Shown: positions 8,358 to 14,822, counted from the first letter of the stretch. The stretch is 64,000 nt of DNA from Thermoanaerobaculia bacterium (GCA_038250865.1 JBBSBW010000008.1:6753-70752); one strand, 5' to 3'. Made by a program: numbers and translations. Notes: generated by a model not told the origin, from the letters alone.

Positions 8358-9707
8358 CTAGTTTTTCACCCGCCCCGAGCACCCGCCGAACCCGATCGAG
8401 ACGTATCCCTCCCGCTCGCATCGCCCGGTAAAGCTCACTTCGTCACCCGCCTCCAGAAACGCACGCGCTTCTCCCGAAGGCAATTCCAGCGGCTCCTTGC
8501 CCCGCCAGGTCCGTTCGAGCAGGCAACCGCGATTTTCCGGCTCCGGCCCCGAGACCGTGCCGCTGCCGAGCAGATCCCCCGGCCGAAGGTTGCAGCCATT
8601 GCTCGCGTGGTGGGCGATCATCTGGGGAAATGTCCAGTAGAGAGAGCGGAAATCGGACCGGCTGACGCGCAGGGGCGCAAGGTTCTGCTCGCGCATCGCC
8701 TGGCTTTGCAGGTGGACTTCGAGCTGGATCGAAAACGCGCCTTCCTTCCGGTTGCGCTCCGAATCCAGATAGGGCAGCGGCGCGGGATCGCCCTCGGGGC
8801 GCGTTGCCGCGGGAACGCGAAACGGTTCGAGCGCTTCGAGCGTCACGATCCAGGGCGAGACGGTGGTCGCGAAGCTCTTGCCCAGGAACGGTCCGAGCGG
8901 CTGGTACTCCCAGGCTTGCAGGTCGCGCGCGGACCAGTCGTCTAAGAGCGAGAGCCCAAACAGGTGATCTTCTGCCTGCTCGATTCCGATCGGCTCGCCG
9001 AGCGGGTTGCCGGTCGCGATCCAGGCGCCGACTTCCAGCTCGTAGTCGAGCTGGCGCGAGGGACCGAACGTCGGCGCGTCCGCGTCCGGCGCTTTGCGCT
9101 GACCGCTCGGCCTACGGATCACGGTGCCGCTCGGTACGATCGAGGAGGCGCGGCCGTGGTAGCCGATCGGCACCCATTTGTAGTTCGGAAGCAGGGGGTT
9201 ATCCGGCCGGAACATCGAACCGACGTTCGTGGCGTGATCGATCGAGGCGTAGAAATCCGAGTAGTCGCCGATCTCGGCGGGGAGCAGCATCTCGACTTGA
9301 GAGAGAGGAAAGAGCATCGCCTCTCCCGCCGCGGAATCTTCCCCGAGCGGATTGTCTGTCCGGAGCAGTGTGAACAGCTGCCGCCGGAGGGCGCGGCGCG
9401 GCGCGGCGCCGAGGCGCATCAGGGCATTGAGCGAGGTGCCCGAGCAGGCGTTCGCAAGATCGGGAGCCACGCTGAGCCGGCCGGATTCGATCGCGGCGCA
9501 GAGATCGAGCACCTGGTCACCGATCGCGACGCCGATCCGCGGCGATTCGCCGGTGATCTGGAACACGCCGAACGGCAGATTCTGGAGCGGAAAGCCGGCA
9601 CCGGCTACGTTCGCCGAAGCGACGAAGCTCCGCGCCGCCGGATCGTGGGTTTCGTCGAGGCGGGAATCGCTCACGGGCACTCCTTCAAAAGGGGATATCG
9701 ATGTCAC
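8358..9707 (-). CDS. fahA: Fumarylacetoacetase (fumarylacetoacetate hydrolase, EC 3.7.1.2)
   Basis: Strong end-to-end similarity to eukaryotic and bacterial FAH: LQNLPFGVF, IGDYSDFYASIDHATNVG, GYHGRASS, DYELEVGAWI, WSARDLQAWEYQPLGPFLGKSF, HHASNGCNLRPGDLLGSGTVSGPEPE. GTG start at the ORF-track end. Confidence 0.9.
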   Translation of the reverse strand: MTSISPFEGVPVSDSRLDETHDPAARSFVASANVAGAGFPLQNLPFGVFQITGESPRIGVAIGDQVLDLCAAIESGRLSVAPDLANACSGTSLNALMRLGAAPRRALRRQLFTLLRTDNPLGEDSAAGEAMLFPLSQVEMLLPAEIGDYSDFYASIDHATNVGSMFRPDNPLLPNYKWVPIGYHGRASSIVPSGTVIRRPSGQRKAPDADAPTFGPSRQLDYELEVGAWIATGNPLGEPIGIEQAEDHLFGLSLLDDWSARDLQAWEYQPLGPFLGKSFATTVSPWIVTLEALEPFRVPAATRPEGDPAPLPYLDSERNRKEGAFSIQLEVHLQSQAMREQNLAPLRVSRSDFRSLYWTFPQMIAHHASNGCNLRPGDLLGSGTVSGPEPENRGCLLERTWRGKEPLELPSGEARAFLEAGDEVSFTGRCEREGYVSIGFGGCSGRVKN

Positions 9708-10575
9708 GGATCTCGTCCACCGGCTCGGTAAACGAGCAGGAGCCGATCGAGCGGCAGAACGAACGGCGCGCCTCGGTGATCTCGGAAGCGGTCAACCGCA
9801 CCCCTCGCCAGGTGATCGCGTCGTCTTCGATCTTTAGATCTCCTCGACCTTCACCCGAAAGCAGAGCGAGCGCCTCGCACTGCGGTCGGCCAGCCCAGAG
9901 AGCGGTGGCGGCGAGAAAAACGTTCAGGAAGCCGTGCATCTTGGCGCTGGGGCTTGACGGTTTGTAAGTTAGCGCTGCGTTGCCGCGGAGCGCGTGATGG
10001 AGGCCGGCGGTCGCCTTCCACGGGGCACGGGCTTCCGCGCAGGTTGTAAGGAAAGTGAGTACAGCGTCTGGCGAGGGAAAAGCTTTGGCTTCGAGACCGC
10101 CGGTTCGAACTTTGGCGCAGGCGCCGATTCGAGCAAGGGTGGCGACGAGTTGATCGAGGTTCGGCGCCTGGATCGGCAGCTCGAAATAGATCTCCCGCCC
10201 AGCCGGCACGAGGGCGCGAAGGCGCTCGATCGTTTCGGTTGTGTCGGCCGGTGTTTCGAAGGCGCCGATCTCGATCGCCGTTCGGTCCGCCGCGAAGGCT
10301 TGGGCGATCGCCAGATCCTCTTCCGCCGTCTCATGGCCGAGCAGCACGGAGAGAGACCAGCGCCCGTCGCGATCCTCGGCGGAAAGCTCGTCGAAGGCCT
10401 CGCCGAATTCCGCGAGGCGTTGGGCGGTGACGACGAAGCGGCCGAGCATTTCGTTTCCAGGGAGGCGATACTGAGCGTAGTTCCAGACCGCCTCACGCAT
10501 CGGCAATCCCGCGGGAGGGAAAAGCCCCGCGTAGTCGATCAGACCGGTCATCAAAGCGTGGATCGCGTGGCTCAT
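9685..10575 (-). CDS. Hypothetical protein (~297 aa) between the acetoacetyl-CoA synthetase and fah genes, translationally coupled to the synthetase
   Basis: ATG at 10573-10575 overlaps the TGA of the upstream gene (ATGA). Protein [21 protein letters not shown]...KVRTGGLEAKAFPSPDAVLTFL...HHALRGNAALTYKP has no family I can name. The longer 634-aa ORF-track entry is an R/P-rich artefact upstream. Confidence 0.5.
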   Translation of the reverse strand: MSHAIHALMTGLIDYAGLFPPAGLPMREAVWNYAQYRLPGNEMLGRFVVTAQRLAEFGEAFDELSAEDRDGRWSLSVLLGHETAEEDLAIAQAFAADRTAIEIGAFETPADTTETIERLRALVPAGREIYFELPIQAPNLDQLVATLARIGACAKVRTGGLEAKAFPSPDAVLTFLTTCAEARAPWKATAGLHHALRGNAALTYKPSSPSAKMHGFLNVFLAATALWAGRPQCEALALLSGEGRGDLKIEDDAITWRGVRLTASEITEARRSFCRSIGSCSFTEPVDEIRDIDIPF

Positions 10576-13630: not shown

Positions 13631-13682
13631 CTCTTGGCTACTCCGTCGAGAGTTCGGGTAGTGGTTTCACGGCGGTCCGGGA

Positions 13683-14822
13683 TCAGAGGTTGCCGCGTAG
13701 CGCCTGCTCGCGCTCGATCGACTCGAAGAGCGCCTTGAAGTTGCCCTTGCCGAACGAGCGGGCGCCTTTCCTCTGGATGATTTCATAGAACATCGTGGGG
13801 CGATCTTCGACCGGTTTGGTGAAGATTTGGAGCAGATATCCCTCGTCGTCGCGATCGACCAGAATGCCCAGCTCGCGCAGCGGGCCCAAGTCTTCGTCGA
13901 TCGAACCGACGCGGTCGAGCAATTCGTCGTAGTAGCTCCCCGGGACGCTCAGGAACTCGACCCCACGGTCGCGCAGCGCGCGGACGGTTTCCACGATGTC
14001 GTCGGTGGCAATCGCCAGGTGCTGCACGCCGGGACCGCCGTAGAACTGGAGGTATTCATCGATCTGCGATTTCTTCTTGGCGACCGCAGGCTCGTTGATC
14101 GGCAGCTTGATCCGCTCGTTGCCGCTCGCCATCACTTTGGACATCAGGGCCGAATATTCGGTCGAGATGTCCGCGTCGTCGAACGACACCAGGTTGATGA
14201 AGCCCATCACCCGCTCGTAAAAGCCGACCCATTCGTCCATCTTGCCCAGCTCGACGTTGCCCACGGCATGGTCAATGTAGCGCAGCCCCACGGGCTCCGG
14301 CTGATAGCGCGGCGAGACGGGAACGAAGCCGGGCAGGAAGAGCCCGAAGTAGTTCTTCCGCTCGACCAGGGTGTGGATCGTGTCGCCGTAGGTGCGGATT
14401 GCGGCAATCACCACCTCGCCGTCCGCGTCGGACAGCACGGTCGGCTCCTGGACCGCGATCGCTCCGCGGGAGACCGAGATCTCGAACGCCTGGCGGCAGT
14501 CGTCCACCCAGAAGGCGAGATCGCGCACGCCGTCGCCGTGCTTCAAGTGGTGCTCGGCGATCGGGGAATCGGGTCCGAGGGGCGAGGTGAGGACGAAGCG
14601 CACTTTGCCTTGCGTGAGCAGGTAGCTCGCCCGGTCGCGAACACCCGTCTCGGGGCCACGGTATCCCTCAAGGCGGAAGCCGAAGGCGCTCCGGTAATAG
14701 TGGCTCGCCTGCTTGGCGTTGCCGCAGTAGATCTCGACGTAGTCGGTGCCATTGATCGGAAACGGATCGGCAGAAGGCGCTGCGGCCTTGGGAGTAGCTT
14801 CGAGTAGGACTTCGGCGATCAT
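13683..14822 (-). CDS. hppD: 4-hydroxyphenylpyruvate dioxygenase
   Basis: From ATG at 14820-14822: [11 protein letters not shown]...[23 protein letters not shown]...[34 protein letters not shown]...[44 protein letters not shown], a typical HPPD. Confidence 0.9.

Follow-up and report, generated by a model that had tools for sequence, protein, structure and literature searches.

We analyzed a stretch of 64,000 nucleotides from a Thermoanaerobaculia bacterium (GCA_038250865.1, JBBSBW010000008.1:6753-70752; this whole stretch is referred to here as the window), which carries an operon for tyrosine and homogentisate catabolism, and focused on one gene of the operon, here named UNK, whose product is a candidate maleylacetoacetate isomerase of a new family. 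Domain and equivalog profile scans confirmed the five co-directional minus-strand genes that an earlier sequence-only reading had placed at 8358-14822. The first, hppD (13683-14822, ATG at 14822), encodes a 4-hydroxyphenylpyruvate dioxygenase of 379 aa that reaches 453 bits against the equivalog TIGR01263 (cutoff 277). It is followed by hmgA (12470-13630), encoding a 386-aa cupin assigned as a short, Bacillus/Rhodococcus-type homogentisate 1,2-dioxygenase, and by the gene of a 633-aa acetoacetate-CoA ligase (10572-12473), with 815 bits to TIGR01217 (cutoff 520.9) and 860 bits to NF002937. UNK (9685-10575) then lies between hmgA and the ligase gene on one side and fahA on the other, and its product, given as 297 aa in the sequence-only reading, is in fact 296 aa in length and matches no family. 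The last gene, fahA (8358-9674), encodes a two-domain fumarylacetoacetase of 438 aa with FAA_hydrolase_N and FAA_hydrolase domains and 554 bits to TIGR01266 (cutoff 375). HppD, FahA and the ligase thus all exceed their equivalog cutoffs, and from 4-hydroxyphenylpyruvate onward the sole step missing is a recognisable isomerase.

Of the three ATGA overlaps previously claimed, two are real, namely hmgA/ligase at 12473-12470, where the ligase ATG overlaps the hmgA stop codon, and ligase/UNK at 10575-10572. The third, between UNK and fahA, is absent: UNK stops at 9685 and a 10-nt spacer precedes GTG 9674, which is most probably the fahA start because AGGAG stands 5 nt upstream of it. An independent gene call in Logan contig L082, in which fahA begins 10 nt past the UNK stop, agrees with this start. 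With the other possible start codon, GTG 9707, the protein would be 449 aa long and its gene would overlap UNK by 23 nt rather than 4 nt. The gap between hppD and hmgA is 52 nt. A divergent LysR-family regulator gene, also noted before, is indeed present on the plus strand (14942-15862, with HTH_1 and LysR_substrate domains), separated from hppD by a 119-bp intergenic region (14823-14941).

We then examined the neighborhood of UNK in other genomes. A pattern scan with one genome per species located relatives at 597 loci or more; 80 of these loci, with UNK homologues 35–47% identical to that of the window, were sampled with up to 8 kb on each side and searched by tblastn with the window proteins. 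As a result, fahA was found near UNK in 75 of the 80 loci, on the same strand and almost always immediately downstream, with a median gap between alignment ends of 24 nt among the 73 loci that passed the coverage filter. As for the other five, two end within about 150 bp of the UNK match and three are cyanobacterial (Nostoc, an uncultured cyanobacterium and Calothrix; L014, L047 and L063). These three have hppD-hmgA divergently adjacent to UNK and no fahA detectable by tblastn within 8 kb, so that it lies elsewhere or is absent; a distant acyl-CoA synthetase, 23–24% identical to the ligase, is encoded as well in L014 and L063. The most frequent gene order was UNK-fahA with no hppD within 8 kb (44 loci), followed by hppD-hmgA-UNK-fahA (13 loci) and hmgA-UNK-fahA (six loci), both with the canonical hmgA and with all genes in one direction. 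The order of the window, with divergent lysR, hppD, short hmgA, ligase, UNK and fahA, recurred in two loci of Gemmatimonadota (L010 and L025), and several other orders made up the remaining 15. UNK therefore travels with both types of HmgA, and hmgA lies directly upstream of the UNK-fahA pair in 24 of the 80 loci.

The phyla named in the locus records are Acidobacteriota, Gemmatimonadota, Cyanobacteria, Bacteroidota, Planctomycetota, Verrucomicrobiota, Chloroflexota, Pseudomonadota and Latescibacteria, and UNK adjoins fahA in at least 10 bacterial phyla. We also looked for a further pathway enzyme between UNK and fahA where the two are separated, and none was found. In two Bacteroidota loci (L017, 1972-2890; L045, 7858-8499), the pair is split by small open reading frames (ORFs) of about 100–116 aa, whose translations read as toxin-antitoxin-like pairs; L050 has an unrelated ORF of 229 aa, and L001 has no ORF of at least 100 aa in this position.

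The pairing also extends to Gram-positive bacteria. In PLSDB, tblastn found UNK in 24 records, including 11 of Streptomyces, six of Priestia, two each of Rhodococcus and Pseudonocardia, and one each of Kovacikia, Nonomuraea and Tsukamurella; no proteobacterial record is among these 24. The record of Nonomuraea gerenzanensis (NZ_LT559118.1) is 11.85 Mb and chromosome-sized, so the actinomycete "plasmid" counts include at least one chromosome. On the whole, fahA is present on 252 PLSDB plasmid records, among them, by organism counts, 11 of Streptomyces and six of Priestia, numbers equal to those with UNK. UNK-fahA pairing is kept at 29–35% identity on plasmids of Priestia, Rhodococcus and Streptomyces. 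The operon of Priestia megaterium pBM-Cp-1-2 comprises hppD, UNK, fahA, a hisC-type aminotransferase gene, hmgA and an amino acid permease gene, and would thus hold a candidate gene for every step of tyrosine catabolism but the isomerase, if the aminotransferase acts on tyrosine. Rhodococcus pNit has hmgA (cupin), UNK and fahA, and the plasmid of Streptomyces sp. NBC_00525 (L085) has UNK and fahA. The accessions of the UNK proteins are WP_223269024.1 in P. megaterium and WP_159419503.1 in Rhodococcus. The lineages of Streptomyces, Rhodococcus and Priestia use mycothiol or bacillithiol, not glutathione.

The known maleylacetoacetate isomerase, MaiA, is a zeta-class glutathione S-transferase (GST), and we searched for it with the human GSTZ1 sequence, verified against PDB 1FW1. 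The statement of the sequence-only reading that no GST-like gene is present holds for the cluster, and the probe found nothing credible in the 64-kb window. Its best match there (37494-37772, E 0.078) was rejected, as it falls inside a plus-strand ORF of 1202 aa (35385-38993), which reads as a large secreted protein because its N-terminus resembles a signal peptide and segments rich in Thr, Ser and Gly recur in it. No GST-zeta was detected by the probe in 83 UNK loci, that is, the 80 sampled loci (up to 8 kb on each side) and three Gram-positive plasmid loci (5–7 kb). This negative is meaningful because the same probe does recover maiA, at 1e-45 to 1e-58, in the proteobacterial loci that served as controls. 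In these controls, maiA adjoins fahA in four of the five loci sampled (Sphingobium, Paracoccus, Acinetobacter and Rhizobium, not Ralstonia), and UNK is absent from all five. Thus maiA and UNK were mutually exclusive neighbors of fahA in every locus examined, which is the signature of non-orthologous gene displacement.

Moreover, UNK belongs to a large family. Its relatives give more than 4900 matches among 90%-identity clusters, and 5755 cluster representatives at 50% identity have E<=1e-3, with 2753 of them at E<=1e-30. All named matches that we saw are designated "hypothetical protein", including records of RefSeq and of the Prokaryotic Genome Annotation Pipeline (PGAP). Neither the single sequence nor the profile had a match in Pfam-A, NCBIfam or the PDB sequences, and 44 aligned homologues searched against Pfam at E<=10 gave no consistent weak family, with no GST, no PF01791 and no MDMPI/DinB among the matches. 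A well-characterised unrelated family that would account for the protein otherwise was not found in Pfam, NCBIfam or the PDB sequences.

AlphaFold2, run with the 44-sequence alignment, predicted the structure with high confidence (pLDDT 96.2, pTM 0.93). The model consists of eight alternating strand-helix units and two hairpins, which make a (beta/alpha)8 barrel of the triosephosphate isomerase (TIM) type. A comparison of 84 sequences, which takes in Gram-positive members at about 30% identity, showed ten invariant polar residues (E107, E132, K155, R157, K187, T189, H193, C280, S281 and E284) and four nearly invariant ones (D14, H194, N218 and R270). The invariant residues all lie at or near the C-termini of the strands in the model, with K155 on strand 6 and K187 on strand 7. 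Judged from conservation and the predicted model, UNK is a real, conserved and enzyme-like protein of no described family; it is called enzyme-like because the invariant polar residues cluster at the usual active-site face of TIM barrels. Its nearest structural neighbors are C-C lyases, i.e., DERA, the HpcH/HpaI aldolases and the DRE-TIM metallolyases.

Two unusual members and one feature of its divergence are also worth recording. In protein P0131 (545 aa), probably a merged gene call, the UNK domain comes after a membrane region of 250 aa that contains an Rce1-like CAAX protease domain. Protein P0224 (512 aa), which is metagenomic and ends at a contig edge, joins in frame a full UNK, a linker of some 75 aa rich in Pro, Glu and Ala, and an N-terminal part of Fah; it could be a genuine Rosetta-stone fusion, or result from read-through of a GC-rich spacer. 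In L025, UNK is only 46% identical to that of the window although HppD (81%), HmgA (78%), the ligase (67%), LysR (66%) and Fah (63%) are much more alike, and homologues from Acidobacteriota reach 76–82%. This suggests that UNK either evolves more quickly than the other genes of the operon or has been exchanged.

Taken together, the linkage to fahA and hmgA, the alternation with maiA, the enzyme-like fold and the position at 9685-10575 support the earlier view that this gene stands in the place of the isomerase. Comparative genomics makes it probable, with moderate confidence on our part, that UNK is a maleylacetoacetate isomerase, a non-homologous replacement for the GST-zeta MaiA. The LysR-controlled operon would then convert 4-hydroxyphenylpyruvate to fumarate and acetoacetyl-CoA: HppD would yield homogentisate, the short-type HmgA would open its ring to 4-maleylacetoacetate, UNK would turn this cis compound into 4-fumarylacetoacetate, FahA would hydrolyze the latter to fumarate and acetoacetate, and the ligase would activate acetoacetate to acetoacetyl-CoA. 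UNK would probably work without glutathione, because it is found in mycothiol and bacillithiol lineages that lack it. As to the mechanism, the 4,6-diketo acid may bind at the C-terminal face of the barrel, with its C4 carbonyl polarised by a Schiff base with Lys155 (strand 6) or Lys187 (strand 7), an idea suggested by strand position, or alternatively by a metal on Glu107, Glu132 and His193. The Cys280 thiol, through transient addition at C2, or the iminium could then remove the double-bond character of C2=C3, so that rotation and release of the trans isomer might follow.

A wider proposal is that UNK represents a cofactor-independent family of TIM-barrel isomerases (Lys-iminium and/or Cys-thiol), supplies the gene behind a Gram-positive activity from 1985, and is the form of the isomerase that prevails in the tyrosine catabolism of Acidobacteriota, Gemmatimonadota, Cyanobacteria, Bacteroidota, Actinomycetota, Bacillota and further phyla; on this the evidence leaves us evenly balanced. 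Hagedorn and Chapman are said to have described that activity, a glutathione-independent maleylacetoacetate isomerase of Gram-positive bacteria, in the Journal of Bacteriology in 1985, which we take as a lead. In our literature search, no publication came up in which a non-GST maleylacetoacetate isomerase is attributed to a gene. A study on the hmgA of Bacillus anthracis reports that its genome has no identifiable maleylacetoacetate isomerase gene and leaves the fate of maleylacetoacetate to further analysis (PMC4457819).

Several points weigh against the isomerase assignment. For every member of the family, comparative genomics is the one line of evidence that suggests this role. The searches for maiA covered the 64-kb window and up to 8 kb around UNK in relatives (5–7 kb on plasmids), not whole genomes. 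We know of no cis-trans isomerase with the fold of UNK. Glutathione can isomerise maleylacetoacetate non-enzymatically, as seen in GSTZ1-deficient mice, which means that organisms with glutathione, e.g., Cyanobacteria, do not strictly need an enzyme for this step. The analogy to Schiff-base enzymes found no support in homology to class I aldolases, which we rejected: a family alignment by hhalign against Escherichia coli DeoC gave a probability of 0.4%, PF01791 did not appear in the 44 members, and the PDB profile search returned no aldolase. In this comparison, the DERA homologues retrieved were all at least 80% identical, too alike for a diverse DERA profile. A pathway without an isomerase is also possible, since direct hydrolysis of maleylacetoacetate is reported in some Bacillus strains (Crawford 1976, as cited in PMC4457819). 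Finally, HmgX (AFUA_2G04210) of the fungus Aspergillus fumigatus is a precedent for caution in deriving function from position: once an unknown protein encoded among the tyrosine genes, it turned out to be needed for HppD to act (PMC3203155).

Among other explanations, the one that survives best is that UNK catalyses a different reaction near the FahA step, as a keto-enol tautomerase of maleyl- or fumarylacetoacetate, as a hydrolase or lyase that acts on a by-product such as succinylacetoacetate, or as an enzyme of acetoacetate, while isomerisation is spontaneous, thiol-catalysed or encoded elsewhere. The C-C lyases as nearest structural neighbors would suit this, the invariant Lys, Glu and His fit aldolase-like as well as isomerase chemistry, and reactions on one shared substrate pool cannot be told apart by genomic linkage alone. 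However, the known pathway needs no further reaction, whereas its isomerase step has no other candidate; UNK and maiA swap beside fahA, which points to the same role for both; and the window FahA is a full equivalog of an enzyme that requires the trans substrate. We therefore consider such a reaction unlikely.

Still less probable is that a canonical GST-zeta maiA or a thiol-dependent isomerase of the DinB type is encoded elsewhere in the genome, with UNK unrelated to this step. Room for it is left by the 64 kb of this genome that the maiA search covered and by the Ralstonia fahA locus, which lacks an adjacent maiA. In Streptomyces, moreover, a KEGG-style mapping placed only a mycothiol-dependent protein of the maleylpyruvate isomerase family on the tyrosine pathway (PMC11012174), and on L085 a gene with a maleylpyruvate isomerase N-terminal (DinB-like) domain (2985-3641) lies about 4 kb upstream of UNK-fahA. 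The latter also counts against UNK as the isomerase, being a possible alternative enzyme in actinomycetes. Yet the association of UNK with fahA in 75 of 80 loci, retained down to 29% identity, would be difficult to account for if UNK played no part in the pathway, and the 83 UNK loci contain no GST-zeta within the distances searched. That UNK is a non-catalytic accessory factor, for instance one that assists FahA or HmgA as partner or chaperone in the way HmgX is required by HppD, is very improbable: the HmgX precedent and the UNK-Fah protein P0224, if a true fusion, would fit physical partnership, but ten invariant polar residues at the catalytic face of a TIM barrel are typical of an enzyme, and HmgX pairs with hppD, is confined to Ascomycota and coexists with maiA, while UNK pairs with fahA and has no hppD within 8 kb in 44 loci. 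The exclusive alternation of UNK and maiA beside fahA is best explained by UNK being the isomerase, better than by any of these rivals.

The other genes of the operon also deserve comment. The window HmgA has only 42 bits to TIGR01015 (cutoff 510), and its assignment as homogentisate 1,2-dioxygenase comes from identity to the annotated Bacillus-type enzyme: along its whole length, it shares 55% identity with a P. megaterium protein that PGAP names homogentisate 1,2-dioxygenase. It is also about 43% identical to the cupin in the same operon position on Rhodococcus pNit, which PGAP labels merely "cupin domain-containing protein". These short cupins are about 385–400 aa, at 12470-13630 (minus strand) of the window, 10531-11685 of L083 and 5806-7008 of L084. 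A proteomics supplement on Rhodococcus globerulus grown through the homogentisate pathway records detection of the Rhodococcus short-form dioxygenase; HmgA and HmgB are listed there, and a UNK-like protein is not (PMC11889516). The short form of HmgA is poorly covered by curated models despite its place in complete tyrosine operons.

The inclusion of the acetoacetate-CoA ligase, which had been described as a neat but uncommon design, is uncommon, yet it is not unique. In eight of the 80 loci, tblastn found a homologue of the ligase no more than 8 kb from UNK, three of these homologues being just 23–24% identical. At other loci, CoA-transferase and thiolase genes adjoin fahA and do the job of the ligase, so a ligase within the operon is a variant of a known theme.

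The LysR protein is probably the activator of the operon, and homologues of 64–66% identity occupy the same divergent position in L010 and L025. The intergenic region at 14823-14941 presumably holds both promoters and the LysR binding site; this is read from its position, because a sigma-70 consensus scan gave no site there, and scanning the operon for promoter and terminator consensus sequences yielded no useful information. The next gene after fahA, on the same strand, encodes a 631-aa Amidohydro_3 protein (6443-8338) with an apparent signal peptide that starts near residue 54, probably a separate secreted enzyme outside the operon.

While the homogentisate pathway is known, the family to which its UNK component belongs is new and has not been described before. 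Should UNK prove to be the isomerase, it would fill the one unassigned step of the textbook tyrosine/homogentisate pathway across a large part of the bacterial tree and provide a gene for an enzyme activity that has none in the literature searched. Thousands of "hypothetical proteins" would be corrected, and automated pathway reconstructions that call the tyrosine catabolism of these phyla incomplete would be repaired. The cis-trans isomerases would also gain a new fold and probably a new mechanism, free of thiol cofactors and built on a TIM barrel, of interest to enzymology and to the engineering of aromatic catabolism in glutathione-free hosts. The proposal makes a long-open question of gene assignment directly and cheaply testable.

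We compared UNK with the closest known systems. HmgX can be set against it by context only, as UNK is bacterial and fahA-linked, while HmgX is fungal and hppD-linked. The class I aldolases (DERA, DeoC/LacD) are 9–16% identical to UNK and alike at the level of fold only. K155 and K187 stand on strands 6 and 7, where DERA has its catalytic lysines (matched by strand position), but UNK has two extra beta-hairpins and the invariant Cys and His. Maleate cis-trans isomerase, of the Asp/Glu racemase superfamily, is cofactor-independent and uses an enzyme cysteine as nucleophile; its mechanism may serve as a model for Cys280 of UNK, although fold and substrate are unrelated and the sequences do not match.

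The maleylpyruvate isomerases of the DinB/MDMPI fold, which depend on mycothiol in Corynebacterium and on L-cysteine or bacillithiol in the BagL type, carry out the cis-trans step of the gentisate pathway in Gram-positive bacteria and are themselves a non-orthologous replacement of a GST-type isomerase. They differ from UNK in being helical bundles rather than TIM barrels, and UNK has no MDMPI or DinB match in Pfam or NCBIfam. Moreover, they act on maleylpyruvate and pair with gentisate dioxygenase, while UNK pairs with the two-domain FahA. The activity reportedly found in 1985 has no assigned gene in the literature searched, nor did we find a published link to the UNK family; it is the activity predicted for UNK, and it reportedly came from nocardioform actinomycetes and Bacillus, whose relatives carry UNK by fahA. 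The last comparison is with MaiA/HmgC/GSTZ1 (GST zeta, EC 5.2.1.2) itself. MaiA is glutathione-dependent, and the two have no relation in sequence or fold, UNK being a TIM barrel of 296 aa without a GST_N or GST_C match; but both occupy the same operon position by fahA and hmgA, and the same reaction is proposed for UNK.

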